The notes under the pieces were generated by a model, which saw nothing but the letters and a program-made list of their open reading frames with translations, was not told the DNA's origin and searched no databases. From Candidatus Sulfomarinibacteraceae bacterium (lineage in GTDB: Bacteria > Acidobacteriota > Thermoanaerobaculia > Thermoanaerobaculales > Sulfomarinibacteraceae), in assembly GCA_963796455.1 (NCBI GenBank), contig CAWCLO010000001.1, positions 1,024,001 to 1,088,000 on the forward strand: a DNA stretch of 64,000 nt, written 5' to 3'. This document shows, one piece after another, positions 46,647-64,000 of the stretch; position 1 is the first letter of the stretch; the number at the start of each line of letters is the position of its first letter. A program made the translations under genes and the position numbers.

Positions 46647-46893
46647 TATCCGATACCCCGATCAGGCGAAGGGCCGGAGCAATCCACTGGGTCGCCGAGG
46701 CCCTCCGATGCCGCTTCACCCACACCGATAGTTTCGATCACAGGGGAGGTACGTGAGAACATCAACCGGGTTCTCAAGCTGCGCGAGAAGATCGTCTGAA
46801 CGGGAAAAATTCCCGTTTCCGCCTTCAATACCCTCCCTACTTCTGGGTCAGTCCGCGCTAGAATCCACGCAGGAATCGACCAGAGGAGGCAGC

Positions 46894-48690
46894 ATGGAGA
46901 AAACGCTCAACGAGCGTTTCATGACGATCGTCGAGAACTGCGGCGACCAGACCTTGTTTCGAGTCAAGCTCGGCGGCGAGTGGCGGGCCCGTACTTTTGA
47001 CTGGGCCCTGGAGCAGGTGAGACTGACTTCCTTCGGCCTTCTGAGTCTGCAGGCCGCTCCCGGTGCAAGGGTCGCGATTCTGTCCGAAAACCGACCCGAG
47101 TGGGCAACCACTGATTTCGCCATCATGGCAGCAGGCCTGGTGAGTGTCCCCCTTTACACCACGCTGATCCCGGAGCAAATCGCCTACATCCTTCGCGACG
47201 CAGAGGCCAACCTCGTTTTTGTCTCGAACATGGATCACCTCGCGACCATCCTCTCGATCCGGGACTCCGTCCCATCGCTGCAAAAAATCGTCGTGTTCTA
47301 CCCCGAAGACCTGCAAGAGGACGAAACCGTTATCAGCCTCAACACGCTGCAGGATCTGGGTGCAGTCCACAGCCGCGACGAATTCGTCGAACTTTCGAAG
47401 CGAGCCCAACCAGACGACATTCTGACAATCGTCTACACCTCGGGAACCACCGGCGAACCGAAGGGCGTGGTCCTCACGCACCGCGGGTTCTGCGCGGAAT
47501 TCGACACGATCCAACCCTTTTTCGAGGGCGAAGCCGGTGACAGTCTGATTTCCTTTCTGCCCCTTTCCCACATCCTGCAACGGGTCGTCGACACCTTTGC
47601 CCTGCTCCATGGTTTCGAGATTGCATATGCCGAGAGCCTGGAGACTCTGGGAGAAAACCTGCGTGAGATCCGGCCTTCCCACATCGTTGCCGTGCCGCGG
47701 GTCTATGAAAAAATCCACGGAAGGATCCACGGCGGACTCCAGCGCGGCCCGGCGTTCAAACGGGCTCTCTTCGAGTGGGCGACCCGGATCGGTCGACGGA
47801 TCAGTCAGGTTGGAGGGCCGGAAGCCGCCGGAACCCTCCTGACGCTGCAACACGCCGTTGCCAACGCCCTGGTCTTCAAAAAGATCTCGGCCGCAACCGG
47901 CGGCAATCTGCGCTACTACGTCTCAACCGGTGCACCGCTGGCCAAGGGACTGGCGGAATTCTTCGATGCCGTCGGGATCCGCATCATCGAGGCATGGGGA
48001 ATGACCGAATTGACCGGAGCCGCCACCGCGAACACCTGGACCGACTGCCGGTTCGGGAGCGTCGGAAAACCCGGGCCGGGGGTCGAGATCCGAATTTCCG
48101 ATGATGGCGAAATCCATGTTCGAGGCGAAATCGTCATGCGCGGGTATTGGCGAAAACCGGAGGCCACAGCGGAGACCATCGACGACGACGGCTGGCTCCA
48201 CACCGGCGACGTCGGTCATATCGACGAGGATGGTTTTCTTCACATCACCGACCGGATCAAAGAGCTGATCGTCACCGCCGCGGGCAAAAACGTAGCCCCT
48301 CAACCGCTCGAAAACGCCCTCAAAACCCACGAACTCATCGCCCAGGCCATGGTGATCGGCGACCGTCGGAATTTCATCAGCGCAATCGTCGTGCCCCAGG
48401 CCGAGGTCCTTCAAGCGACGGCCGGGGAGCTGGGTCAGGATGGCGATCTCGAAGCTCTTTGTGAAAATGAAGAGGTTCGTAACCTCTACCGCCTCGCGAT
48501 CGAAGAAAAAATGGACGGTTTTTCGCGCTACGAAACGGTCCGGAAATTCGTTCTGGTTCCATCGGAGTTCAGTCAGGAGGCCGGTGAGCTGACGCCGACT
48601 CTCAAGCTCAAACGCCGGGTGCTGTTGCAGAAATACGCCGACCTCATCGATACCATGTACTCCGACAAAGGTGTTACAGCAGGGAATTGA
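46894..48690 (+). CDS. Long-chain fatty acid-CoA ligase (AMP-dependent synthetase)
   Basis: Motifs YTSGTTGEPKG, FLPLSH, WGMTE, GWLHTGD and ELTPTLKLKR. RBS GAGGAGG. Confidence 0.95.
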   Translation: MEKTLNERFMTIVENCGDQTLFRVKLGGEWRARTFDWALEQVRLTSFGLLSLQAAPGARVAILSENRPEWATTDFAIMAAGLVSVPLYTTLIPEQIAYILRDAEANLVFVSNMDHLATILSIRDSVPSLQKIVVFYPEDLQEDETVISLNTLQDLGAVHSRDEFVELSKRAQPDDILTIVYTSGTTGEPKGVVLTHRGFCAEFDTIQPFFEGEAGDSLISFLPLSHILQRVVDTFALLHGFEIAYAESLETLGENLREIRPSHIVAVPRVYEKIHGRIHGGLQRGPAFKRALFEWATRIGRRISQVGGPEAAGTLLTLQHAVANALVFKKISAATGGNLRYYVSTGAPLAKGLAEFFDAVGIRIIEAWGMTELTGAATANTWTDCRFGSVGKPGPGVEIRISDDGEIHVRGEIVMRGYWRKPEATAETIDDDGWLHTGDVGHIDEDGFLHITDRIKELIVTAAGKNVAPQPLENALKTHELIAQAMVIGDRRNFISAIVVPQAEVLQATAGELGQDGDLEALCENEEVRNLYRLAIEEKMDGFSRYETVRKFVLVPSEFSQEAGELTPTLKLKRRVLLQKYADLIDTMYSDKGVTAGN

Positions 48691-48692
48691 CC

Positions 48693-50825
48693 TCAATCGG
48701 CCGCTTCGACCCGAACCGGCACACCGTTGAGGACCGCATTCCCGCAGAGCTCGTCGACGACCAGGTTGTCGGTGAGATCGTTGGCGCTTGCTACCGATCG
48801 ATCCTCACCGGAGCCGGCCCACCGCCGGCCCCAACCGTGCGGCAAGCTGACAACACCCGGCGCCATATCGTCGTTGATCTCGAGAGCGGCCTCGACACGA
48901 CCGGTCCGTGAAATGACCACAACCCGATCACCGTGGTCGAGGCCGATCGGCGCTGCATCACCGGAATTCATCATGAGCGTGCATCGGTCCCGGCCGCGCG
49001 TCAGACGCGGAAAACGGTGCATCCACGAGTTGTTGCTCCGGAGATGCCGGCGGCCTATGAGGAGCAGTCTCTCGTCGTCGGGGAGATGGCCGATCTTCTC
49101 TCTGAGTCGCTCGAGATCATCGAGGAAGACGACCGGTCCCAGATCGATCTTCCGGTCCATTGTTCGCAGACGATCCGGCAGACAGGGAACGAGCGGGCCG
49201 AGGTCGATACCGTGGGCTTGTTTTTCCAGCCTGTCGAGGTTCATTCCGTCAGCAAAGGGCCGGAAACCCGCGCCGTAGGGCCCCGAACGCAACCCGAAAT
49301 CGAGGATCCGCCTCGGCCCGAGCACCGCATTCAGCCGGCGTTTGAACCGGAGCAACGGCGAATCACCATCGAGGCGCTGCCGAAGCTCTTCCAGGATCTG
49401 CCAATCGTGGCGGGCCTCCGGTACGGGTTCAAAGATCGCCGGTGAATAGCGGGCCACATTGCGGACCGCCAAAAGATTGAATACCAGATCGTAGTGATCG
49501 TGTTCGAGGGCTGACGTCGGTGGCAGGATGATCTCGGCATACCGGGTCGTTTCGTTGACGTAGAAATCGATGGCCACCATAAAATCCAGATCGGCGATTG
49601 CGCGTTCGACCTCAACGCCGTTGGGGGTCGACAGCACCGGGTTGCCGGCGATTGTCATCAGCGCCCGAACCTGCCCCGATCCAGGAGTCAGGATCTCCTC
49701 CGCCAGCGCAGCCACCGGGAATTCGCCGCCGAACTCGGGGAGACCGCGTACCCGGCTGTGACGGTGCCCCAATCTTCCCGGAGCGGTATTCGAGACCAGA
49801 TCCACCGCCGGCCGGGAGAACATGGCCCCTCCCGGACGATCGAGATTGCCGGTGACGATGTTGATGGCGTTGACGAGCCACTGGCAGAGGCCACCGAATT
49901 CCTGCGTCGAGACACCCATCCGTCCGTAACACACGGCTGACTGGGCAGCGACGAAGTCCCGCGCCATGCGACGCAAGGCCTCGGCCTCGATGCCCGTTAT
50001 TGTCGTGACAGACTCCGGGCTGAATTCGGCGGTCGCCTGGCGAAGCGCGTCGATTGACTCAACGATGTTTTCGAGGCGTCCCGGGTTCTCGAGACCCTCG
50101 TGGAAGATGACGTGCAGCAGCGCCATCAGAAGATAAGCGTCGGTGCCGGGGCGGATGAAAAAGTGTTCATCAGCCATCCGTGCTGTCTCGGTCCGGCGCG
50201 GATCGACCACGATCAGACGCCCACCGCGTGCCTGCAACTCCTCGAGCCTCCGTTTGAAGCCCGGCGCGGTCATCATGCTGCCGTTCGACACCACCGGGTT
50301 GGCGCCCAGGATCAACAGATGGGATGTCCGATCGATATCGGGTATGGGCAGCAGCAGTTTGTGACCGAACATCAATGTGGCGGCCACATGATGAGGGAGT
50401 TGATCTACGGAGGTGGCCGAATACCGGTTGTGGGTACCGAGGCATCTGATGAGGGCCGGGGCAAAAAGCAGGGATCCCCAGTTGTGAACGTTGGGGTTTC
50501 CGAGATAGACGGCCAAAGCGTCACGACCGTGGGCTTTCTGAACCGACCGGAGACGATCCGCGACTTCATCGAGGGCCTCGTCCCAAGCGATGGGTTGCCA
50601 CCCTCCACTCTGTCGCCGCATCGGTTGGCGCAACCTCTCGGGATCCTTGTGGATATCTTGCAACGCGACCGCTTTGGGGCAGATGTGGCCGCGGCTGAAG
50701 GGATCATCCTTGTCGCCACGAATGGCGATGATTTCGCTTCCATCCACCTCGATGGCAAGGCCGCAAATGGCTTCGCAGAGGTTGCAGGCCCGAAAATGGG
50801 TTGAGATTTGTGTGCGGTCGGACAT
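48693..50825 (-). CDS. Molybdopterin-dependent oxidoreductase
   Basis: 4Fe-4S motif CNLCEAICG...ICPK, plus VVDPRRTETA, RSNNSWMH and PGVVSLPHGWG. Confidence 0.92.
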   Translation of the reverse strand: MSDRTQISTHFRACNLCEAICGLAIEVDGSEIIAIRGDKDDPFSRGHICPKAVALQDIHKDPERLRQPMRRQSGGWQPIAWDEALDEVADRLRSVQKAHGRDALAVYLGNPNVHNWGSLLFAPALIRCLGTHNRYSATSVDQLPHHVAATLMFGHKLLLPIPDIDRTSHLLILGANPVVSNGSMMTAPGFKRRLEELQARGGRLIVVDPRRTETARMADEHFFIRPGTDAYLLMALLHVIFHEGLENPGRLENIVESIDALRQATAEFSPESVTTITGIEAEALRRMARDFVAAQSAVCYGRMGVSTQEFGGLCQWLVNAINIVTGNLDRPGGAMFSRPAVDLVSNTAPGRLGHRHSRVRGLPEFGGEFPVAALAEEILTPGSGQVRALMTIAGNPVLSTPNGVEVERAIADLDFMVAIDFYVNETTRYAEIILPPTSALEHDHYDLVFNLLAVRNVARYSPAIFEPVPEARHDWQILEELRQRLDGDSPLLRFKRRLNAVLGPRRILDFGLRSGPYGAGFRPFADGMNLDRLEKQAHGIDLGPLVPCLPDRLRTMDRKIDLGPVVFLDDLERLREKIGHLPDDERLLLIGRRHLRSNNSWMHRFPRLTRGRDRCTLMMNSGDAAPIGLDHGDRVVVISRTGRVEAALEINDDMAPGVVSLPHGWGRRWAGSGEDRSVASANDLTDNLVVDELCGNAVLNGVPVRVEAAD

Positions 50826-50921
50826 TGATCCACGGAGAATTGTATAGGGTCCCGGGCTCCGCTACAGTGCCAACGACCGCAGCGATTTGTTGACCGCCCG
50901 ACAACCACTCCGGAGGAATCC

Positions 50922-52649
50922 ATGCGCTCATCAGCGAAATTGATCGGATCCGCACTCTTCGCAGCCCTTCTGTTGATCCCGACGTCGCTCTTGGCAATCG
51001 AGTTCGAGGTGTCGTTTCCATCCGATCTCGAGACCGGGCCTGTGGACGGCCGTTTGCTGCTCCTGATTTCGGGTTCCGCCGAGACCGAACCCAGATTTCA
51101 AGTCCGCCCTGGGGTCAACGCCATTCAAGTCTTCGGAAAAGATGTTGATGGTCTCGAGGCAGGCCATGGGGTCCGCATCGACGATGCTGTTTTTGGCTAT
51201 CCAATCGAGAGTCTCAGCGAAATTCAGCCGGGCGAATACTCGGTCCAGGCCGTGCTCCACCGGTATGAGACCTTCAATCGAGCGGATGGCCACACGGTCA
51301 AGCTCCCGATGGATCGTGGCGAAGGTCAACAGTGGAATCGTGCCCCGGGCAATCTCTACAGCACACCGCGCACGGTGACGATTGCCCCTTCGTCCGACAC
51401 GGTCCACGAAATCGAGCTCGACTCAAAAATCCCACCCATCGAGCCGCCCGCCGAGACCGCCTACGTCAAGCACATCCAGATCCAGAGCAAGCTTCTGACC
51501 CAGTTCTGGGGCCGTCCCATGTTCCTCGGCGCCCACGTTCTTCTGCCGCACGGTTTTGCCGACCACCCCGAGGCACACTATCCGCTCATGGTCTTTCACG
51601 GCCACTTCCCATACGACTTCGGAGATTTCCGCACCTCTCCTCAGGACCCCGATCTCGAGTGCGAGTATGCCGAGAGATTCCAGGTGGACTGCTACAACCG
51701 TATTCGCCAGGAGGAGGCCTATGCCTTCTACCAGAAGTGGATCAGCCCTGATTTTCCCCGATTTCTCATCATCGAGATTCAGCACGCCAACCCCTACTAC
51801 GATGATTCCTACGCCGTCAACTCGGCCAATCTCGGCCCTTACGGTGATGCCATCACCCACGAACTGATTCCCTACATCGAAGAAAAATTTCGCGGTCTCG
51901 GTGAAGGGTGGGCACGGTTCCTCTACGGCGGGTCAACCGGCGGTTGGGAGGCCCTGGCGGTCCAGGTCTTCTATCCCGACGAATACAACGGGTGTTTTGC
52001 CGCGTGCCCCGATCCCATCGATTTCAGGGCCTACGTCCAGACCGATATCTACTCCGACAGCAACGCCTATTTCGAAGAGGGGCCGTTCCGTCGACTGGAA
52101 CGACCGAGCCGCCGCAACTGGCTCGGCGAGATCTCAGCGACCATGCGCGACGACGGTCTGTGGGAGCTCGCCCTCGGTACCAAGAGCCGGTCGGGCCAAC
52201 AATTCGATATCTGGGAAGCGGTGTATTCTCCGGTGGGTGATGACGGCTACCCGAAGCGGATCTGGGACAAAAAGACCGGAGAGATCGACCACGAGGTCGC
52301 GGACCACTGGCGCGAGAATTACGATCTCCGCTACATCCTCGAACGGGACTGGGCGGTCCTCGGACCGAAGCTCGAAGGCAAGATCCACATCTTCACCGGC
52401 GACATGGACAACTACTACCTCAACAACGCGGTCTATCTCACGGAGAAATTTCTCGAAACGACCACAGATCCCCACTACGGAGGCGTCGTGGACTACGGTG
52501 ACCGCGCCGAACACTGTTGGAACGGCGACCACAAGAACGGGAACTACCTCTCGAGGCTGCGCTACAACACGATGTACCTGCCGAGGATCCTGGAGCGAAT
52601 CGAGGCAGCCGCACCCGAAGGGGCCGATCTGACAAGTTGGAGGCACTGA
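50922..52649 (+). CDS. Secreted alpha/beta-hydrolase (putative esterase)
   Basis: Signal peptide, a GGSTGG nucleophile motif, and DSYAVNSANLGPYGDAITHELIP. Confidence 0.8.
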   Translation: MRSSAKLIGSALFAALLLIPTSLLAIEFEVSFPSDLETGPVDGRLLLLISGSAETEPRFQVRPGVNAIQVFGKDVDGLEAGHGVRIDDAVFGYPIESLSEIQPGEYSVQAVLHRYETFNRADGHTVKLPMDRGEGQQWNRAPGNLYSTPRTVTIAPSSDTVHEIELDSKIPPIEPPAETAYVKHIQIQSKLLTQFWGRPMFLGAHVLLPHGFADHPEAHYPLMVFHGHFPYDFGDFRTSPQDPDLECEYAERFQVDCYNRIRQEEAYAFYQKWISPDFPRFLIIEIQHANPYYDDSYAVNSANLGPYGDAITHELIPYIEEKFRGLGEGWARFLYGGSTGGWEALAVQVFYPDEYNGCFAACPDPIDFRAYVQTDIYSDSNAYFEEGPFRRLERPSRRNWLGEISATMRDDGLWELALGTKSRSGQQFDIWEAVYSPVGDDGYPKRIWDKKTGEIDHEVADHWRENYDLRYILERDWAVLGPKLEGKIHIFTGDMDNYYLNNAVYLTEKFLETTTDPHYGGVVDYGDRAEHCWNGDHKNGNYLSRLRYNTMYLPRILERIEAAAPEGADLTSWRH

Positions 52650-52796
52650 GAGTCGACTCGCCCGTTTCAGGGCCACGGCAAACAAGAGACCACATCTCAA
52701 TTACACGATCCGAGATGGGAAAACGGCTTTTTGAAATCAGAATTGTTGCGTCTGAGTGGTAATTTTTTCTCCAGCTGAAGGTTTTTCAAGATAGGA

Positions 52797-55700
52797 TTGG
52801 GTGTGCACCCCAGTCAGCCGACACGGGCTTCGCTCCAGGAAGGGTGGGTCATCGCCAACCATATCCTGGTGTCCTTTCACGTTGCCTTTATCTCTTCCGT
52901 GCTTGCTCTCCCGGCAGAAGCAATTCTCAAAGCCGATGTCCTGCGTTTTATCTTCCTCAGCTGGGAAACACTGGTCTCGGCCTTGTTCATGGGGATCACA
53001 TTTCATTGTGGAATCGCCATCCATGAACTCGGGCACTTTCTCGCCGCCGCTCGACTCAATGCACTCAACGAATCAGTTGCCGCTGACGCCAACGAACATC
53101 TCCACCGTCCGTTTTTCGGTCGTCTGGTTTTTTTGGCCGGGATGTTTCTCCGTATCCCCTACGGCACCGCACCAGGTGTCAAACGGGAAGGCCTGAACTA
53201 CTACCCAGATGCGCCCTACAATCTGGCCGTCGCCGCCGCCGGGCCACGAGCGAGCCGCAACCTGGCCGTCGCGGCCCTGCTGCCCGCCGCTGTATTGCTC
53301 ACCCTCGGTCTCTTCCTCGACACCGACCCGGCCATCTATGCCGGCCGGCTGCTCCTCGGTATCGGGTTGGTGGCCTTTCTGGATTTTCGATTCGCGGACC
53401 CCGGGAAATACGCCGAATTCCGCACCCGGGAAGCCCTCGCGAACGAACGAGCGGCCACCGTCGGGGAGGTCAAGGGCTGGCTTCTTCTTTGTCCGGAACA
53501 AAAGAACCGGATGATCGAGGAACGCATCCAGGAAGCGATCCACCCGCGGCTCGGACCGGTGACGGCGCCCTGGCAATTCCGCAATTGTGGAATGGGTGGC
53601 CGCCACACCGAAAAAGAATATCCCGAGTCCAACATCAGCATGCAGGAGGCCATGTTTCTGATTCTGAATGCACGGGACTACCAGGATGCGCAAGAGTTGA
53701 CGGTCCGGCTGCAAAACCGCCTCAAGGAAATCATCGAAAAGGAAGAGGGCTGTCGGGTCATGGGAATCGGCCTCGAAGGGGGGCTCGCACCATACATCGA
53801 CAAGGGCGACTATCAGCTTCCTGAACTTCGTCTGTGGGCGATGATGAAACAGGCCATCGCCGAGTGCGGTTGCCGGCCGGGAATCGACGTTGCGATCGCT
53901 CTGGACCCGGCGCTGAGCGAACTCGAGATCGCCTATCGCCAGGAATTCGACATGCCCGACAGTGTCGGGATGTATCTCTTCTGGCGCGACAAGGCCAAGC
54001 TCATCCTCGATCGAAATGCTGTGCTCGAGATCTACGCTACGGCGATCGAAGATCTCGAGATCCCCGTCCTGTCCATCGAGGACGGCTTTTCCGAGGACGA
54101 TCACGAGGGTTGGCGGCTGCTACTCGAACGCCTCGGCAAACACATCTTTGTCATCGGGGACGACCTCGTGACGACCAATGATTCGACGATCGAAGACGCC
54201 GCCGATCGCGGGCTGATCAACGCCGCCCTCATCAAAGCAAATCAGATCGGTTCGTTGTACGAGACTCTGCTCGCCATGATGGTGGCATTGGGCAAGGGCC
54301 AGGATCTCGTGGTATCCCACCGCTCCAAAAGCCCGAATGACGACATGGAGGCGCAGATCGCGCTGGCGGTCAATGCGCTCGGACTCAAGGCCGGAGGTGG
54401 CGCCAACACCGAACGACTCGTCAAATACCAGGCGGTCACCGAGCAGATGCTCAAGGTGGCGGACTCGGGTGGCGAAACCGCGCTGCACCCTGGTGAGAAA
54501 GCTGTTGTCCGTACCCTGCGAGCCTACGAGGAATCCACCAACGCGGGCATCCCGACGGTCGGCGTCACGCTCGAACTGGCTGTCCCCTCGGCCGGTGTGC
54601 GGCTCCAATTCAGAGGTGCGACACCGCTCGGAACATCCGCTGGGACCGGCGAGGCGATCCATCTGGTCGACGCCCTCATCGAACAGGCCGAACACCGGGA
54701 GATCATCGATCGCTTCGGCGGCTTCTTCGAGCAACGGGAAAGGGGCGTTTTCACCTTTGGCAAGGAAGTGTCGGAAGCTGAAATTCGATCCGCCCAGGAC
54801 GAAGGGCTGACGCATCTTTTCGAACGAGCGCAACGATATGGTGGGAAGGGCTGCCTCAACGCGGTCGACAACGTTGTGCAGATCATCGCGCCCCAGTTCA
54901 CCGGACGCGACATTGCCGGCCTCGGACTCAGGGAAATCGACGCCTCGCTGCTCGGTCTCGAACTCTTGACCGCCCGGCGGCGCGGAAAAATCGACTCTGG
55001 AGACGATTCGGAAAACCCCATCCAGGTCATGCAGCGCAAACAGAATCTCGGCATGAACGCGATGTTGTCGGTTTCGCTGGCGCTTTCTCGTGCGGTCGCC
55101 CACATCCAGGGTAAAGAACTCTACGAACTCTTGCGCGAAGAAATGATGCGAATCATCGAAGACCTGGCCCGATCGTATGAGGTGGAGGTCCGCGGCAGCC
55201 GTTTTTCCGATTATGTGACGGCCTTGCGCGAGGTCACCGGGATCCTCGAAGGACAGGGACAACCCGTGTTCGAGGTCCTCCGGAGTCGTACAGCGATCTA
55301 CTCATTGGCTGAAGAGTTCTCGAAAGGAACGCAAATTGTCGGGACCGGTTCCGGCGGTGATCCGATCCTGGAGGGAGAGCACAAAAGGACGAAGGCTGAC
55401 GATCCGCCACCCGTTCCCGAACCCGTTCCCGGGCCCGCCGCCCGCGGCATCGAGACCTCCCTGCCCAAAAACTTCACACCCCTGGACCGCGACACGATCA
55501 CCGATCTGAGCCGAGCCCTCCATCGAGCATTTGCGGTGACCGACGACCGAAGCGACGCTTCAAACACCCTCCGTTCCTACCTGGAGACCAAGACCGCCGC
55601 CGCGAGCAGGCTGGGCCGCTTCGGTATCGTCAACAACCGCGTATTCACCCACGACGGCACCCTTCTGGCGCCTTTTCTCGTCGGCGAGACCCTGGTACTG

Positions 55701-58700
55701 CAATCCGTCAACGACGACTCCAACCGAACCCTTGCGGTACGTCGTTTTCCCGCCGGCACCATTTATACGGACCAGGTGTTCATGGAGATCGCCGATTTTG
55801 ACGGCCGCGCGATCGACGTCGAACAGGCTCTCTTCTTCTTCGATGCCGAACATGTGACGGCGCCGCGGATCACCCGCATTCGCGACATCGCCTCACTGCT
55901 CAAGGAGGTCAACGAGGCCACCAATCGCAACCAGGCGCTCTTCCTCTTGAGACACCTGGTGGCGAGGCTCTGCAATCTCTCGGTCAAAACCTTTCTCGGC
56001 GCAAAGAATCTGCAGCCCGAGGTCAACGAACTCAACAGCCAATTGATACAGTTCATCAACGGCAGATTGTGCACGCGTCTCGCCGGTCTGTCTCGAACCA
56101 TCGTCCGCAACCTCTCGAGCGTCATCGGCAAACCGAATCTGATCGATCAACTGTGGAACGACACCATCCGCCTGGCTGAGGTGGAGATTCGGGGCAGCGC
56201 GATCGTCAACGAACTGCGGAGAAGCAGCCACCACGCGCTCGGGAAACGAACCCTCGTGCTCGCCGAGGCCTACCTCCGCTTTCTCGATACCGGCGAGATG
56301 GGTCAGTTGAATCGCCTCGGTTTCGATCATCCGGCGGCGAGCGATCTCGAGGCCAGAGAGAAACAGAAGCCGCGCGATATCGTCGAACGCGTGGTCGAGG
56401 ACCTTGGGCGGCTTCTCGGAACCTCCGAAACGGTGGCCAGAATCCAGGAATGGCAGCGATCCTACAAGGAGATCCTACTCCAGTGCCAATTCGGCAATCA
56501 GATCGAGACCGAACTCGAAACGATGATTGCCAAGGGCATTCGGGCCCGCAACCGGTGGGTGTATTTCCACCACCTGAGGATTCTCAACCAGAAAGCAGCG
56601 GACTTTTCGCGACCGGAGGCGGTGACTAAGGAATTCACCGCCCGCCTCGAGCGACTCCGCACCATGCGACCCGACGAAGCGGATTTCGACGCCGACCTGT
56701 GCGAAGCCGAGGCCCGCGAGGCCGTGGAGATCTTCACCACCGGAATCCGCGCCGCCTACCAGAACGAGCTCTTCCAGATGCTCGACGCGGTGATCGAGGC
56801 CAACGAAAAGAGCTCCCCCTACGAGACCTTCACGATGGTCCGGAGTCTGCGAATACGTTTGCAGACCATGATCCGAAACGGTGGGTTCCCATCGCAACGC
56901 TACTTCCTGCACCAACTCGATTGTCTGCTCGAGGAGATGAGCTACCTCGCCGTGAGACAGATCGCCACGGCCTATTCGGAAAAGGGGGTCGATCTCGAGC
57001 AGTGCCTGGAGATCATCCGCGTTTCGATTCTCAACCTCGAGTTTGACGGACTGGCCTCGCGTGAGTTGCACGATCTCTCGGGTCTGCTCGGCCACCCGAA
57101 TCGGAGCGACGGCGAGCTCCTCGATGTACTCAGACACGTCAGCCGCCACTACCACAAGATCCGCCAACGGGTGACCAATCCCTACGAACACATGAGTCAC
57201 CATCTCGCCCTCGACGAGGAAGACCTGCGCACCGTTCTGGCCAATATGCAGCGCTATATGCACGACCTCAACAGCGTGGTCCAATTCGCGGACATCGCCG
57301 GCGCACATATCCGGGACCAACAGACCCGAAACAAAGAAAACGGCAGCGCGCACGGCAGCGACGCTGATCTCCAATCGGTCCACGACATCATCCACATCTC
57401 GCACAAAGACCAGGTCGTCGCCGAAATGGATATCTGCTGCGAGCGGCCGAACTTGCGGGAGCGTTATGGCGGTAAGGGCAGCAGCCTGCTCTACGTCACC
57501 CAACTCAATCTTCCGACTCGGGACGGTTTCATCCTCCCAACCACAATCCCGCGCGCAGGCCTCCATCGTGGTGATACCACCTGGTTGGAAGGAGAAATCA
57601 CCAAACACCTGAAAATCCTCGAAACAGACCTTGCCGGCCAAAACGGGATCATCAAACGATTCGGCGACGAGAAGGAACCGCTGGTACTGGCGATTCGAGG
57701 CGGTTCGGTCTTCTCGATGCCCGGTATGCTCTCGACAATCGTCTTTGTCGGGATGAACGACCCCATCGCAGCGGCCCTGGCCCAGCACGGTCCATGGCGC
57801 GCCTATGATTCGTATCGCCGCTTTCTCGCCTCCTTCGGCCTGGCTTTCTGGGGCGTCGACCTCGAGACCTACAACCTGGTTGATGATGCCAAAAAGCGCC
57901 ATGGGGTCGAGTACAAAACTGATCTTTCGTGGGAAGCGATGAAAGAAATCGCCGAACGGTCAAAAACGGTGTTCAGAGATCACGGTCTATCGGGCGAACT
58001 GGACCGCATCCTGAAAGACCCGAGGCAGCAGCTGCTCGCTGCCGTGTGCGCGGTCTTTGAGTCCTGGAACAAGGAGAGAGCCCAGCGATATCGGGAGATC
58101 AAGGGCATCTCGCACTCGTGGCAGACCGCGGCCATCGTGCAGGAGATGGCTTTTGGCAACGGCCGCAACGCAGCGATCGAGGCGCCGATGGATGAAACCT
58201 TGGTGTCCCTCACGGGCGTCATTCCACGCACCACCGTCACCGAGTTCGGTCTGCGGGAGCTGTCGGGTGAATTCAAATTCTCGGCCGCCGGAGACGATCT
58301 CGTCGGCGGTGTTACATCCTCCGAGTCCTTCCATTCCATCGATGAACTCGACTCCTTGATGCCGATGCTCGGGCGCCGGCTTCGCCACGTCTCCTCGCGG
58401 CTCAGGCGATCGATGGGCACCGATCAGGAGGTCGAGTTCACCGTCGAAAACGGAGTTCTGAGCGTTCTCCAATCAAGGACCGCGGAAACCTATGCCGACC
58501 AGGCAATCGATCGTTTTGTTGAGCCCGGCGAGGCCGTCACCAGGGGACTCGGTGTACGCGGCGGTGGTTTCCGGGGGCTGGTCGCCTTCGATGATGCCGA
58601 TCGTGAAGAACTCGCGGCGATCGATTTCTCTCGCCGCGACGATGTCGACGGGGTGCTCCTCGTGTTGGAGAACCCCACTCCGGAGGAGATCCCGATGATC

Positions 58701-58979
58701 ATCTCCGCCGATGGGCTGCTGACCGCAAAGGGTGGATCCACCTCGCACGCCGCAGTCGCCGCCAACGGGATTGAGGACCGGAATTTCTGTTCGGTCATGA
58801 GCGCCGGCGGTCTTCGCGTCGACCTCGAAAAGCGTGAAGCCGTCATCCAGAACGCCGACGGAGAGATCCTCCACCGGATCCTCAAGGGTGATGTGCTCTC
58901 GCTGCACGGCACCTCGGGTGAGGTCTACATCGGTTCTCGCGCCCTCCGCCAGGTCGACGGCAAGGAACCGCAATCGTGA
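52797..58979 (+). CDS. 2060-aa multidomain protein: HExxH membrane domain, circularly permuted enolase, unknown helical region, PPDK ATP-grasp and phospho-His domains
   Basis: HELGH...AAAGP, then enolase barrel motifs GGRH, MQE, GLEGG, SIEDG, GDDL, IKANQIG and SHRS, which precede cap motifs PLGTS, RYGGKG and LGMNAMLSVSLA. PPDK motifs follow: YGGKG, SMPGM, YDSYRRF, VQEMAFGN and GGSTSHAA. Confidence 0.88.
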   Translation: MGVHPSQPTRASLQEGWVIANHILVSFHVAFISSVLALPAEAILKADVLRFIFLSWETLVSALFMGITFHCGIAIHELGHFLAAARLNALNESVAADANEHLHRPFFGRLVFLAGMFLRIPYGTAPGVKREGLNYYPDAPYNLAVAAAGPRASRNLAVAALLPAAVLLTLGLFLDTDPAIYAGRLLLGIGLVAFLDFRFADPGKYAEFRTREALANERAATVGEVKGWLLLCPEQKNRMIEERIQEAIHPRLGPVTAPWQFRNCGMGGRHTEKEYPESNISMQEAMFLILNARDYQDAQELTVRLQNRLKEIIEKEEGCRVMGIGLEGGLAPYIDKGDYQLPELRLWAMMKQAIAECGCRPGIDVAIALDPALSELEIAYRQEFDMPDSVGMYLFWRDKAKLILDRNAVLEIYATAIEDLEIPVLSIEDGFSEDDHEGWRLLLERLGKHIFVIGDDLVTTNDSTIEDAADRGLINAALIKANQIGSLYETLLAMMVALGKGQDLVVSHRSKSPNDDMEAQIALAVNALGLKAGGGANTERLVKYQAVTEQMLKVADSGGETALHPGEKAVVRTLRAYEESTNAGIPTVGVTLELAVPSAGVRLQFRGATPLGTSAGTGEAIHLVDALIEQAEHREIIDRFGGFFEQRERGVFTFGKEVSEAEIRSAQDEGLTHLFERAQRYGGKGCLNAVDNVVQIIAPQFTGRDIAGLGLREIDASLLGLELLTARRRGKIDSGDDSENPIQVMQRKQNLGMNAMLSVSLALSRAVAHIQGKELYELLREEMMRIIEDLARSYEVEVRGSRFSDYVTALREVTGILEGQGQPVFEVLRSRTAIYSLAEEFSKGTQIVGTGSGGDPILEGEHKRTKADDPPPVPEPVPGPAARGIETSLPKNFTPLDRDTITDLSRALHRAFAVTDDRSDASNTLRSYLETKTAAASRLGRFGIVNNRVFTHDGTLLAPFLVGETLVLQSVNDDSNRTLAVRRFPAGTIYTDQVFMEIADFDGRAIDVEQALFFFDAEHVTAPRITRIRDIASLLKEVNEATNRNQALFLLRHLVARLCNLSVKTFLGAKNLQPEVNELNSQLIQFINGRLCTRLAGLSRTIVRNLSSVIGKPNLIDQLWNDTIRLAEVEIRGSAIVNELRRSSHHALGKRTLVLAEAYLRFLDTGEMGQLNRLGFDHPAASDLEAREKQKPRDIVERVVEDLGRLLGTSETVARIQEWQRSYKEILLQCQFGNQIETELETMIAKGIRARNRWVYFHHLRILNQKAADFSRPEAVTKEFTARLERLRTMRPDEADFDADLCEAEAREAVEIFTTGIRAAYQNELFQMLDAVIEANEKSSPYETFTMVRSLRIRLQTMIRNGGFPSQRYFLHQLDCLLEEMSYLAVRQIATAYSEKGVDLEQCLEIIRVSILNLEFDGLASRELHDLSGLLGHPNRSDGELLDVLRHVSRHYHKIRQRVTNPYEHMSHHLALDEEDLRTVLANMQRYMHDLNSVVQFADIAGAHIRDQQTRNKENGSAHGSDADLQSVHDIIHISHKDQVVAEMDICCERPNLRERYGGKGSSLLYVTQLNLPTRDGFILPTTIPRAGLHRGDTTWLEGEITKHLKILETDLAGQNGIIKRFGDEKEPLVLAIRGGSVFSMPGMLSTIVFVGMNDPIAAALAQHGPWRAYDSYRRFLASFGLAFWGVDLETYNLVDDAKKRHGVEYKTDLSWEAMKEIAERSKTVFRDHGLSGELDRILKDPRQQLLAAVCAVFESWNKERAQRYREIKGISHSWQTAAIVQEMAFGNGRNAAIEAPMDETLVSLTGVIPRTTVTEFGLRELSGEFKFSAAGDDLVGGVTSSESFHSIDELDSLMPMLGRRLRHVSSRLRRSMGTDQEVEFTVENGVLSVLQSRTAETYADQAIDRFVEPGEAVTRGLGVRGGGFRGLVAFDDADREELAAIDFSRRDDVDGVLLVLENPTPEEIPMIISADGLLTAKGGSTSHAAVAANGIEDRNFCSVMSAGGLRVDLEKREAVIQNADGEILHRILKGDVLSLHGTSGEVYIGSRALRQVDGKEPQS

Positions 58980-59297: not shown

Positions 59298-62200
59298 TCA
59301 GTCGCCTTCGACCTGCAGTCGATGACCCGCCGAATAGGCCGTGAACTCGGGCGCATACATCGACTGTAGAACCGCCGGACCGACCCGGAATGCTCCGGCC
59401 ATGTTCGCGCGCAGGCGGTATTTGAAGGTGTACTCACCCGCCGGCAACCACTCAAAGAAGAAGTTGGTGCCGGAATCGCGGACCTCTTCGTACCAGGAGA
59501 TCCCGAGATCCCACTTGTACTGCGATCGCAATGTCTCGGGCTCGAATCCAGCGCCCCGCGGGTCGCGAAGATGGACATACTCGGCGGCGTGTTTGGCGCG
59601 GATCGACAGGTGGACCTCGATCTGGTCGCCCGGGTTGATTTTCTCGCCATCTTTCATAGGCCGAAGCACCCATCCCGAGCCGTCGTTGAAGCGTCGGAAG
59701 TAGGCCCGTTCGACCGCAAAAAGATCTCCCCGGGCCTCATCGGGCAGCCGCTCGGTGGAAAAGTGCCACGTGGCCGAAGCAAAGGCAAAGCCCTTGAGGG
59801 TTTTTCCACGACGATGGTGGACATGGTCTCCGGGTCCACGGCTTCGCCCTCGACAATCACCCGGTTGCGGGCTCCGGTGTAGCTATCCGGCTCGAAGACA
59901 AATCGTGTGGTCCGGGGCCCCATCGACACGCGAGATCTCCTCGCGCACCTCGAGGGTCTCTTCGTGGCGCAGATAGTGGGCCAGGGAATAGAGCACTTCG
60001 GCGGTGGCGCGGGTCGACTTCCAGTGGTTGAGTTTTTTGTTGAGCAGCAACCACTGGACCAGACCGTGGCGGCGGCCGTCGTCCGGCTCGAGCTCGGTCA
60101 ATGTCCGCAGAGCAAAAGCGTGGGTCTCGGTGGTGTCGTTGTACCAGAGCCAGGCGCGGTCCTCGGGCGCCCAATAGGTGCCGAGATCCTCATCGGTCTT
60201 TGCCGAATCCATCACCGAATCGAAGACCAGAACCGCCTCGTCGTGGCGCCCCATCCGCTCGAGGGTCAGCGCCAGATAGCTCTTGGTCAATGGTGAGTGC
60301 GCCTTCCAGTGGCGGAAGCTGAAATCGAGCATCCGCTTGCGGTCGTCGGCGGTGAACACTCCGCCCGTCCACGACTCGTCGGGGTAGTTGGAGAGCGTGT
60401 AGTTCAGAAACGTGATCGTTTCCCAGCAGCAATTGTGAGCCATCATCTGCTCGACCCAATAGTCGAGATAATGGCGGTGCATATACGCCCAGGCCCGCAC
60501 CACGACATCCTTCGGCGTCTCGACGCCAAACTCGAGGCCCTTGGAAAAACCGTGCAGGATGTAAAGCGTCATCCAAGGTGACGGAGGTCCGCCGGGCCAC
60601 CACGGAAAGCCGCCGAGTGAGGTCTGGCTCTTTTTCAACTTGGCAAGAGCCGCCTCGCGTTGGGCGCGGGTCACCGTCGGATCGAGGACGTTGACGAGGT
60701 GGTCGGAATCCTCCGCGCCACCGCGAGACATCTGCAGCCACGGCGTCTCGACCAACTCCATAGCGCGGTTGGGATCGTCGGCTTCCCATTGTTCAAATCG
60801 GCTCTCACGCTGCGACAGCTTTGCGGCCATCCGCTCTACCGATGGGTACCTATCAAAGAGGCTCGACACGATCCCGGTCGAAAGAAAACGGTTGAGGGTC
60901 TGTTCGGTGCACTCGTAGGGGTAATCCACCAGATAGGGCAGGGCATTGAGAACCGAGTAGAAGAGCTGGGCATCGATGGTGACCGCAAGTTGCCCGTGGA
61001 TCAGAGACGGGTCGTCATCCGATGCCATATCGGCAAAATGGAGCTCCCGGCGATCCGCATCGTGGAGCGTAGCGAAACGTGATTGCATGAGGTGAAGACG
61101 ACCCGGCAGTACCGGTAACGGTCGGAGCTCGCCGTCGGAGAAGTCACCGGCGCGAGCAATGACCTTGAAGGCCACAGTACCGACCCGGGCGGGGACCTCG
61201 AGTTCGAAACTCAGATCAGTACCCTTGCCGGCTTCGACCTCAAAGGGCAGACCCGAGGTGTCCTCGGCCGAAAGACCGAAGAGTGATCGCAGATCCTCCT
61301 CGGTATCGGGATCGTAGATCGAGAGGTTGAGCGCACCCGACAGTGTCTGCTCTCCGGCGTTGTTGACCACGACCTTGAGCAGAGCACGATCGCCCTCGCG
61401 GAGGAAGCGGGGCAGGTAGGGGCGAACCATGAGCTCCTTGACGCTCGCCGCCTGGCGGGTGACCGAACCACCTTTGAGATCGGTGGTCAGGGCGTGAACC
61501 CAGAGATTCCACTCTGTGACCGAGTCCGGAACATCGAACTCGACAGTCGCCGATCCGTCGTCGTTGAGGAGGAGGTGGGGCTCCCAGAAAGCGGTCTCCG
61601 AGAAATCGGACCGGAGTTCGACGGCAGCATTGGGCGGATCGGTGCCACCGGCTGCGCTCCGGTCGGCGTCAGCCAGGTTCCGGCTTGTCTCGCCTTCCCG
61701 CTTGAATTCCGCGCTCTCCTCGGCCGCCATCGGGGCGGCCATCGCCATGGCCGCGGAATCCATCCTCGATTCCATGACCATGCCCGCCTTCATCTGCCGG
61801 AATCCACCACGCCGACCGGGCCCGCCGATGCCGTACCCGTCCAGACTCATGAGCGCATCACCATGAAGGTGGGGGAAGCCCGGTGGATTGGGCAGTCCTG
61901 ATGTGCCCCAGGCGCGCGGCGCCTGGCCGAGGTTGTCCCATAAACGAGCGATCCCGGAGCGGTTCGGATAAAGCGCCGTCACCGACGGCGGCGAATGTGG
62001 GGCAAAGATATCGAGGCTGCGGTCATACATATAGGCCAGCAATTCGGCGGCGGCGGTGTCGACAGCGGACCCATCATGACGCCGCACCGTGACCGTGAAG
62101 GTTTCGCGGGTACCGGGCCGCATCCGGTCTCGGAAGGTCGCGAAATCGAGCTCCAACCGGCGGTCATCCCAGGGCACGAAAAGCTGGGCCGTCTGGCGTA

Positions 62201-64000
62201 CCAATTGGTGGTCCCTGACAAGGGTCAGGGCAACCCCAAAACCGCCACGATCAGACGCGGTGATGGGAATCTCGATCACACCCGACTGGCCGGCTCCGAT
62301 GGGACGTCTCTCGGTGCGGCGTCCGTCGCGGAAGATCTCGAGCATCATTTCCTGCTTGCGGAAGCCGGTGAAATACAGGAGCCGGGCGGTCTCCCCGACC
62401 GCAGCAGAGCCCCGGTCGAAGCGAAGCAGAGCGGGCAGCGACAGCGGGGTCCGTTTCCGACCGGTCACGACGAGGTGTTCCCGGGTTTCAAAGGCAGCAC
62501 CGAAGTCGTCCTCGGTGGAGTAGACCAATCGATAGGCGCCGGCGGTCAGCCCTGGGAGGTCGACCGAACCCGCACCGTCTTCTCCGTGCGCTACGTGTCC
62601 GGAAGCAATCTCCTCGCCGTCCGACCACCCGGCCAAGACACTCTCCGGATCGTAGCGATGTTCCCAACGGGAGCGGAGCTCGTCTCCCGGGTGTCCGGAG
62701 GCCGGGGTGGCCGCCCGGAACCAAGGGTAAGGGTTGATCAGCCGGGGTCAGGGTCTCCGACGGCTGATCCAGACGGAGCAATCGCCACGAACCGGTGCCC
62801 GCGCGGGGTGTTCCATCGAGGTCGGTACGGAGTACCCGGACAGTCGAGTCTTCCTTTGCCGCCCGAAAACCGAGGTCATCAATTATCCGCGCCTCGACAG
62901 CGACAAAACCGAGGCGGAAAACGCGCTCCGCCGATCGGGTCTCGCCACCCTCATCTGTGACATCCACACCGAGTCGGTAACGATATGTCACGCCCTGCCC
63001 GGCCTCGCGTTCGTCGGCTTCAGGGATGAACTGGACACGGAATCGGCCCTCGTCGTCGAGCCCCGATTCTCCCGCCGCCACCACCTGCCGTTGGCCGGAT
63101 GCTCTCGGATACCACCAGGACCACCAGCGCGGATAGACGGGCTCCCGAGTCACACTCCACTTCACATCACCGCTGACAACCGGGAGTCCGAAGTAGTAGC
63201 TCACCTCTCCTGTGAGCTCCGCCTCTCGATTGAGCCGCAGGGATACTTCGGGTTCGGAGATCTCCACCGAGAAGGTCGGCCTTTTGTATTCTTCGACCCG
63301 AAACCAGTTCTGTCCGCCAAAAGAAGTGCGAAGCCACCACCGACCGAGAAGGCGGCCGGCGGGAATCGTGAAACTGCCGCTGGCAGAACCAAAGGTGTTG
63401 GTGGACAGGGAGGTCGACCCGACCTCCTCACCGTTCGCATCCACGAGCGAAACCGTGATGTCGGTCTTTGGCACGGTTTCATATTCGATTGCTTCGCCGC
63501 CACCGCGGTAAGCGACAACCTTCCAGAAGATCTCCTGCTGCGGGCGGTAAGCCGAGCGGTCGGTATAGATCATTGCCGAGGAGCTCACTCCACGCGAGCC
63601 TTCGTGGCTCAGGTGAAGCCGAGTGGTGTCCAGGGCCAGATCGGCGTGGCGTTTTGCAAACACGAAATACTGTTCCCGTTGCCAGCGGGCGTGTTTGAAG
63701 GTCACCCGGCCGTCATCACCGCTACGTTGTCGTTCCATCTCGCGGTGACCCTTGCGGTAGTCATATCGATAGAGCGAAATATCCGCCCCTTCGAGTGCCC
63801 GGCCGCTCGCTCCGGATCGCGCCGTCACTTCGTAGCCGCCGGGAATCGTCCGGGTCACCAAGACCAGATCGGAAAGAATGAAGTTGTCGGCAACTCGAAG
63901 ATTGCCGGCCTCCTCGAAGTCCGCCCGCATCGATGCCACCACCAGATAGGCCCCGGCCTGATCGAGATCGGGCACCGAGAAGGTGTTGTGGGAGCGGAAA
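59298..64000 (-). CDS. Bacterial alpha-2-macroglobulin (MG2/A2M domains), frameshifted, 5' end beyond the window
   Basis: Motifs YTDRSAYRP, FRVEEYKRP, LRSDFSETAFW, LPRFLREGD, YPYECTEQ and LQSMYAPEF, across ORFs 62488..63975, 59883..62636 and 59298..59669. Confidence 0.92.

Follow-up and report, generated by a model that had tools for sequence, protein, structure and literature searches.

The question raised by this locus is what a single protein could do with a zinc-protease-like membrane domain, an enolase and half of a pyruvate phosphate dikinase (PPDK) in one chain. The gene lies in a 64,000-nucleotide stretch of the genome of a Candidatus (Ca.) Sulfomarinibacteraceae bacterium (assembly GCA_963796455.1, contig CAWCLO010000001.1, positions 1,024,001 to 1,088,000 of the forward strand; hereafter the window), where an earlier inspection of the letters alone, here called the sequence-only reading, had pointed out an uninterrupted open reading frame (ORF) of 2060 residues. 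We report that this ORF encodes a single conserved protein which fuses an M50-like domain, an enolase with its two domains in reversed order, and a phosphate-transfer module. Apparently new are the natural permutation of an enolase, the link of the middle domain to glucan water dikinase (GWD), and the three-part fusion as such, whereas the parts themselves belong to known kinds.

Reality of the gene and of the family

The plus-strand ORF at 52797-58979 is open throughout its 2,060 codons, in agreement with the sequence-only reading; the likelier start is the GTG at 52803, which gives 2,058 aa, is preceded by an AGGA ending 6 nt 5' of it, and matches a database record of 2,058 aa beginning with MHPSQ. 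Residue numbers are counted from the TTG at 52797 and not from the GTG at 52803. Pfam matches follow each other in the order Peptidase_M50, Enolase_C, Enolase_N, PPDK_N and PEP-utilizers; they place the previously proposed domain boundaries right to within a few codons, and the Peptidase_M50 match stays under its cut-off.

A protein search returned 417 matches among 7,999 scored candidates, and the best 120 of these, one being identical to the query, provide the rows (query-identical record included) on which all conservation counts out of 120 are based. In 117 of the 119 other proteins all six parts are covered at 70% or more. Among the best 80 of 130 GTDB loci the whole domain order is found in one ORF in 53; contig ends cut 20 loci, stops or frameshifts break the fusion in four, in one it is cleanly divided between two neighbouring genes (953 and 1,179 aa), and two have the membrane-enolase half alone. 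A further set of 83 loci, 80 from metagenomes and three from genomes, contains 44 full fusions and 17 stand-alone genes made of the middle, ATP-grasp and His domains. The full-length homologues in independent genomes which the sequence-only reading had proposed to look for are thus at hand. The possibility of an assembly chimera or a chance read-through across adjacent genes has next to no probability, for although the frameshifted adjacent gene points to indels of the assembly in this region, it is refuted at the level of the family by the same one-ORF order in all three of these independently assembled sets.

The homologue records among the matches listed, all from metagenome-assembled genomes (MAGs), belong to Acidobacteriota, Planctomycetota, Gammaproteobacteria, Deltaproteobacteria/Myxococcota, Aminicenantes, Krumholzibacteria, Gemmatimonadota and Dehalococcoidia, and the closest named ones in that list (80-81%) include Ca. 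Sulfomarinibacter and Thermoanaerobaculia. Distribution is that of an accessory gene, with carriers in 8 out of 25 genomes of its own genus and 6 out of 401 of the phylum (a tally that counts genome G064 as a non-match), and with none in the 16 genomes of the other family sampled within the order. The database labels of the homologues are either "enolase" or "PEP/pyruvate-binding domain" (PEP, phosphoenolpyruvate), and metabolic reconstructions of sediment bacteria may consequently miscount the fusion proteins.

Table 1. Features of the fusion gene and their positions in the window
Feature	Residues	Position	Strand	Basis or key residues
Probable ribosome-binding site (AGGA)		52793..52796	+	sequence and database protein start
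Whole gene, 2,058 aa counted from GTG		52803..58979	+	ORF and database record
M50-like membrane domain	12-225	52830..53471	+	Pfam, hhalign, conservation, hydropathy
Enolase barrel (canonical C-terminal domain), placed first	251-569	53547..54503	+	H270, Q283, E284, E327, D370, E428, D455, K480, H508-R509-S510, K531
Enolase N-terminal domain, placed second	570-790	54504..55166	+	Pfam Enolase_N, alignments to solved enolases
Helical extension (791-845) and variable Pro-rich linker (846-890)	791-890	55167..55466	+	split point, HD insertion site
Small alpha/beta subdomain	~895-1020	55479..55856	+	AF2 strands
All-helical domain, predicted homologue of GWD central domain	1024-1515	55866..57341	+	AF2, hhalign, invariance
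PPDK-type ATP-grasp	1552-1904	57450..58508	+	K1560, R1634, R1675, E1880, Q1892, R1894
His-swivel domain, H1984 in GGSTSH	1909-2048	58521..58940	+	Pfam, C. symbiosum PPDK alignment

An enolase with reversed domain order

Both the order of the Pfam matches (Enolase_C at residues 263-569, E 5e-46; Enolase_N with its best stretch at residues 746-779, E 4e-12) and alignments to solved enolases show that the enolase is circularly permuted, the barrel preceding the N-domain. What had been described as a complete enolase is complete as to the catalytic residues checked, but the permutation of its domains had been missed. The catalytic and Mg-binding residues of enolase (H159, E211, K345, the HRS motif, K396, S38/39, D246, E295 and D320, according to the part of PMC4535590 available) have their counterparts in H270, E327, K480, H508-S510, K531, S614, D370, E428 and D455, which are kept in 118 to 120 of the 120 rows, the rest being gaps. 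The loop-1 serine of the N-domain, S614 in the motif GTSAG, is present in all 120, and this domain carries two insertions. Compared with enolase proper (EC 4.2.1.11; PF03952 + PF00113; TIGR01060) the fusion thus keeps every catalytic and Mg-binding residue checked, but differs in its reversed domain order, an identity of about 31-35%, loop insertions and the attached membrane domain, and scores 203 bits against the TIGR01060 cut-off of 300. On the strength of these residues the permuted enolase is likely to interconvert 2-phosphoglycerate (2-PG) and PEP.

Enolase is near-universal and structurally conservative; one would not have expected a natural permutant that keeps the whole active site and is joined, in many phyla, to a zinc-protease-like membrane domain. 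The sequence-only reading had not recognised the architecture from any characterised protein, and it appears to be undescribed: in the literature searched we found no description of it nor of a natural permuted enolase, and the available portions of PMC8100219, PMC5371819 and bioRxiv 10.64898/2026.06.07.730766 contain nothing on either.

Two variants of the enolase half were seen. In a Dehalococcoidia MAG (L088:1-9776) a lone membrane-enolase (848 aa) is the last in a row of genes on one strand, the others being ACS/CODH beta, CdhD and CooC-like genes, and a normal enolase was not found in this incomplete MAG of 1.0 Mb. At L092:6681-11681 the membrane-enolase module is duplicated in tandem (1,666 aa), and the contig carries the normal enolase as well, some 6 kb beyond.

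A phosphate-transfer module without pyruvate barrel

The PPDK N-terminal and His-swivel domains named by the sequence-only reading are present (Pfam PPDK_N at residues 1620-1788, E 1e-14; PEP-utilizers at 1951-2017, E 5e-8), with the catalytic residues in 120 out of 120 rows: aligned with the PPDK of C. symbiosum, K1560 corresponds to K22, R1634 to R92, R1675 to R135, E1880 to E323, Q1892 to Q335, R1894 to R337 and H1984 to H455. The equivalent of T453 is also kept, and D321 is replaced by Glu. R92, R135, E323, Q335, R337 and H455 count among the catalytic residues of PPDK. The role of K22 is taken from PMC4844700 (available in part). TIGR01828, the PPDK family, matches at E 2e-77 as against 2e-5 for PEP synthase (PEPS), and a quick tree (27 rows, eight left out) places the ATP-grasp of the fusion with PPDKs and apart from PEPS and rifampin phosphotransferase (RPH) with a Shimodaira-Hasegawa-like approximate likelihood ratio test (SH-aLRT) support of 100%; stand-alone forms are scattered among fused forms in this tree. 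By homology it is very likely that ATP and Mg give phospho-His1984 and AMP.

The closest known systems share this module in part. PPDK (EC 2.7.9.1; TIGR01828; C. symbiosum 1KBL/1DIK) has the same order of ATP-grasp and His swivel with the same catalytic residues, but the fusion lacks the PEP/pyruvate barrel (no PF02896 in the Pfam scan of the ORF, and the protein ends 12 residues past the His domain), has Glu for D321 and carries large N-terminal additions; the absent barrel and a TIGR01828 score of 261 bits, below the cut-off of 843, rule out membership. VadK (Rv1127c; NF004531), a barrel-less PPDK which autophosphorylates its His and is regulatory (PMC13400623, available in part), likewise pairs ATP-grasp and His without a pyruvate domain (E 1e-53), but consists of those two domains only, as opposed to the 2,058 aa multi-domain fusion, whose 183 bits are below the cut-off of 456; cut-off and size exclude it as well. 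In RPH and related substrate-domain dikinases the pyruvate barrel is replaced by another acceptor domain and the His swivel is C-terminal (PMC4844700). The fusion resembles it in both respects, and the stand-alone middle-ATP-His genes share the logic of its layout, but the RPH acceptor domain gives no match to the middle domain (E 0.43) and the order in RPH is ATP-acceptor-His. By analogy with these enzymes, the fusion would act as a dikinase of the swivel-His type in which the acceptor domain has been exchanged.

A middle domain related to glucan water dikinase

The approximately 770 aa between enolase and ATP-grasp, previously left unassigned, contain what profile comparison identifies as a homologue of the GWD central domain. 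An AlphaFold2 (AF2) model of residues 925-1545 (predicted local distance difference test, pLDDT, 88.7; predicted template modelling score, pTM, 0.79) consists of the small alpha/beta subdomain followed by about 20 helices. No clear match for it was found in the PDB, the potato GWD entries 9HA9 and 9QVI being absent from the listings and possibly from the library compared. Invariant residues of the helical domain are R1104, E1139, R1141, R1142, H1145, H1146, R1352, E1379, E1380, R1486 and D1490.

A profile search with the middle domain across 1.84 billion representatives gave 94 matches. Outside the family the matches were weak (E 3e-7 to 5e-6), and every one long enough to be judged proved dikinase-like; two of them had the GWD order and a GWD1_pHisD domain, and onward searches reached bacterial and plant glucan water dikinases. 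In hhalign comparisons, for which E-values are pairwise, the middle domain matched the central domain of Omnitrophota-type GWD-like proteins (96.6%, E 6e-10), this in turn matched plant GWD (97.7%, E 2e-12, 366 columns), and a pooled 65-row profile was matched by the middle domain at 97% (E 8e-11, 357 columns). A reversed profile and the RPH-type acceptor domain, run as controls, were both not significant. In the alignment NELRRSSHH of the fusion falls on EEWHQKLHN of GWD, and of the 24 GWD-conserved positions that could be aligned 9 have the identical residue, among them R657, H701, R843 and D864 in the numbering of the Euphorbia GWD P0260. These comparisons indicate that the middle helical domain is a distant homologue of the GWD central domain, by way of bacterial intermediates. 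The small alpha/beta subdomain, compared with the carbohydrate-binding region that precedes the central domain in GWD, gave no match (hhalign E 0.16).

The potato GWD central domain is described as 20 helices in three clusters, with the His domain resting on helices 18-20 for transfer and E900/R904 proposed to assist it (PMC13553574, available in part). By eye, the stretch LALD..NMQR of the fusion, with the invariant R1486, resembles LGVD..EEIVR of GWD just past the end of the computed alignment. By homology the helical domain is probably the acceptor site, in which R1486 would face the His as R904 does in potato.

The fusion shares with GWD1/PWD (EC 2.7.9.4/5; potato central domain PDB 9HA9 and 9QVI according to PMC13553574) the all-helical central domain with a common Arg/His/Asp core, and an ATP-grasp plus swivelling His. 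It differs in the order central-ATP-His instead of central-His-ATP, in its PPDK-type ATP-grasp, in an insertion of about 80 residues in the middle cluster and in several changed GWD-invariant residues; Pfam found no carbohydrate-binding module (CBM), PF22973, PF23166 or GWD1_pHisD match in it. Domain order and the missing CBM rule it out as a member of GWD/PWD.

Some of the proteins met in these searches deserve mention of their own. Omnitrophota-type dikinases (P0206, P0208, P0216-P0226) have the GWD order, in some cases with HEAT repeats, and bridge the fusion family and plant GWD. P0209, of 1,628 aa and from a cluster named Ca. Omnitrophota, combines a GWD-like central domain, a PPDK-type ATP-grasp and a His domain, and is sister to the fusion family in the quick tree (93%); its N-terminal part looks GlpX/FBPase-II-like by eye from a motif, and has no Pfam match at 0.001. 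In most of the bacterial "phosphoglucan water dikinase" proteins P0234-P0247 a fused AP-endonuclease-2-type barrel (PF01261) stands where a CBM would be.

The membrane domain

The hydrophobic HExxH domain seen by the sequence-only reading is supported by hydropathy (hydrophobic stretches at about 17-44, 48-76, 152-177 and 179-197) and by conservation: HELGH (residues 76-80, H76-E77-x-x-H80) lies within a hydrophobic helix, and 118 of the 120 rows have H70, H76, E77, H80, D196 and D201, the other two showing gaps there. AAAGP at residues 146-150 is near-invariant, and D201 is a candidate third Zn ligand. The first hydrophobic helix (residues 13-37, 52833-52907), which includes H22 and H28, hardly varies from phylum to phylum, and it may represent a metal site, a dimer contact or a self-substrate.

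Pfam Peptidase_M50 matches the window protein at residues 69-220 with 18.7 bits (E 0.009; cut-off 27.2), and 63 of 71 family members match at E 1 or better, the best at 2e-7. A profile of 24 RseP N-parts is matched by hhalign (75%, E 2.5e-5), but the RseP C-part, which contains the NxxP..DG motif region, is not; LDFxxADPG stands where canonical M50 proteins have NxxPxxxxDG. Because the one half matches and the other does not, the membrane domain is best described, as far as profiles can tell, as M50-like with a variant third-ligand motif. Structure-match listings for the fold of this region were filled by enolase. Site-2/M50 zinc proteases (RseP, SpoIVFB, PF02163) are alike in having HExxH in a hydrophobic helix, after which come a predicted beta hairpin, then a GP helix and finally a conserved Asp; they are unlike in that the fusion is below the Pfam cut-off, has the altered motif and an extra invariant His and Asp, and carries an enolase in place of PDZ or CBS domains.

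Modularity of the two halves

The halves are joined by a linker with a mean conservation of 0.11 over residues 846-890, and the gene split of locus L029 falls in this region. In 18 of 120 proteins the linker is occupied by an insert of the HD type, some 270 aa long and with intact HHGxxH/HD motifs; Pfam HD was above cut-off in one of three insert-bearing proteins tested (P0119 only). Two stand-alone dikinase genes share synteny with full fusions, and genomes G439 and G440 have the membrane-enolase half only, in G440 as a tandem. Wherever the permuted enolase occurs in the 80 GTDB loci the membrane domain comes with it in 79, and the lone exception is cut by a contig end. The existence of stand-alone forms, a dikinase of 1,170 aa and a membrane-enolase of 850 aa, makes each half directly assayable.

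Proposed activity and its alternatives

Our preferred reading, which we hold tentatively and rate somewhat short of an even chance, is that of an ATP-driven dikinase for a hydroxyl other than that of pyruvate, likely of phosphoglycerate. The ATP-grasp would move the beta-phosphate of ATP onto H1984, as in PPDK, RPH and GWD, the phospho-His domain would swing to the GWD-like domain, and a hydroxyl held there would be phosphorylated. The acceptor would be a phosphoglycerate supplied by the enolase, for instance 2-PG, which would become 2,3-bisphosphoglycerate; the membrane domain, a putative zinc enzyme, would in addition anchor the remainder of the protein at the cytoplasmic face, and the HD insert of some members could be the matching phosphatase. 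A GWD-type middle points to an ATP-to-acceptor dikinase rather than to a relay fed by PEP. GWD uses the C6-OH of the glucose unit (PMC13666283, available in part), and 2-PG becomes the first candidate because it is an enolase ligand with a similarly free primary hydroxyl. A lower-glycolysis metabolite is favoured as the class of acceptor, with a chance that comes close to even at best and on association only, because enolase is the commonest fusion partner, there is no CBM and no glycogen linkage, and a GAPDH-like gene follows a separate barrel-less family.

Several observations weigh against this reading. The active-site loop of the enolase shows a conserved change, HRSKSPND for HRSGETED, and the active-site loops are of low confidence in the structural model. 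The middle domain compared with plant GWD alone is not significant (hhalign E 0.23), the pooled profile without its Omnitrophota rows falls to 56% (E 1e-4, 329 columns), and the pairing of R1486 with R904 lies outside the hhalign match and has a register ambiguity of one turn. Likewise the helical part of the GAPDH-linked family is not significantly similar to the fusion middle (E 0.07), which makes the parallel weak. Enolase-dikinase channelling is not obligate, because the dikinase half occurs without permuted enolase in genome G436 (93% complete) and in 12 of the 17 stand-alone loci, namely those where 3.4 kb or more upstream could be read and no such enolase was present. The sequence-only proposal of a coupling of PEP status to His phosphorylation and ATP turnover survives in part: homology makes it likely that the His is phosphorylated from ATP, and the halves that occur alone speak against an obligate coupling to PEP. 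Finally, the invariant protease-like site, the HD insert and the patchy spread would fit regulation equally well.

Regulation is the core of a somewhat unlikely alternative, a signalling machine in which a VadK-like histidine kinase has a protein, or itself, as its target, the level of 2-PG/PEP is reported by the enolase, and a membrane regulator is cut by the M50-like domain once this is switched on. VadK provides the precedent of a regulatory, autophosphorylating barrel-less protein (PMC13400623), the HExxH and D201 are conserved beyond the needs of a plain anchor, and the constant company of membrane domain and permuted enolase, the HD insert, and one stand-alone dikinase that comes after a histidine kinase and a receiver gene all agree with it. 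So does the retention of normal enolase and normal PPDK matches in 8 of 8 carriers of the genus, the host's own copies being intact. VadK, however, has no acceptor domain, whereas the fusion keeps a GWD-type domain of 490 aa rich in invariant Arg and His; the M50 motif is altered with no match to the C-part profile, and recurrent neighbours include no sigma factor, anti-sigma factor or regulator. A combined membrane switch, in which the enolase feeds 2-PG to a dikinase making 2,3-bisphosphoglycerate, the HD insert erases the product and the resulting state gates an intramembrane zinc protease, seems unlikely. If true, it would amount to a Rapoport-Luebering-like shunt in bacteria, and its acceptor domain on a PPDK chassis would connect PPDK with the plant starch kinases in a protein of today.

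We are doubtful about a membrane-tethered dikinase of glucans or glycans (glycogen or a lipid-linked glycan), analogous to GWD acting on starch, with the enolase as passenger or regulator. Among relatives of the middle domain only GWD and PWD are characterised, both glycogen synthase and phosphorylase are present in the host, and the synthase is found in 11 of 13 carriers tested; but 13 of 17 non-carriers (one weak) also have it, so that it does not discriminate, and in G436, a dikinase carrier, neither glycogen gene was found. In addition to the missing CBM, no glycogen gene is among the recurrent neighbours, a GH13 branching enzyme was not found in the host genome (90.5% complete), and the GWD-conserved K699, L700, P706, D708 and W918 (P0260 numbering) are not kept.

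The idea closest to the sequence-only reading, a PEP-fed regeneration of ATP, is quite improbable. In it H1984 would receive its phosphate from PEP made by the enolase, and the ATP-grasp would turn AMP and PPi into ATP as in PPDK, the place of the pyruvate barrel being taken by the helical domain or by that of the enolase. The ATP-grasp is indeed of PPDK and not PEP-synthase type, with R1675 kept as the equivalent of the Pi-binding R135, and enolase and GAPDH, which make the two high-energy donors of glycolysis, are the partners of two barrel-less families. The pyruvate barrel is absent, however, GWD-type domains phosphorylate sugar hydroxyls and not enolates, and the substrate phosphate of enolase is buried by the HRS motif; the host moreover has a full separate PPDK, and the halves occur apart.

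Genomic context and parallel families

Across phyla no functional neighbour recurs in the loci compared. An upstream block at 46753-52649 (acyl-CoA synthetase-like, molybdopterin oxidoreductase and a secreted esterase-like protein of 575 aa) is syntenic with the fusion in close relatives only. Besides the fusion gene the host (G000) carries at least six further PPDK_N-domain genes, on contigs C1, C4, C5 and C8. At L197:7406-13260 two same-strand genes, one for a TPR histidine kinase and one receiver-only, come before a stand-alone dikinase.

A separate barrel-less PPDK family of 1,370-1,450 aa, with a helical N-part, ATP-grasp and His domain, was found at L093:1979-7598, L210:5406 onward, L212:6766-12349 and L213:1200-6627. 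A divergent GAPDH-like gene lies directly downstream in four out of four readable loci, followed in L212 by an FBPase_3 gene, and the likeness of the helical part to GWD is at motif level only (E 0.008-0.07).

Downstream of the fusion, on the minus strand at 59298-63999, a bacterial alpha-2-macroglobulin gene lies in several frames, so that the sequence-only description of this part of the window as free of frameshifts does not hold, though the fusion ORF itself is intact. The gene is 66-77% identical to an intact homologue of 2,009 aa in L125. One frameshift is located near 62690 and apparently two compensating ones near 59700-59950; these breaks are probably assembly indels.

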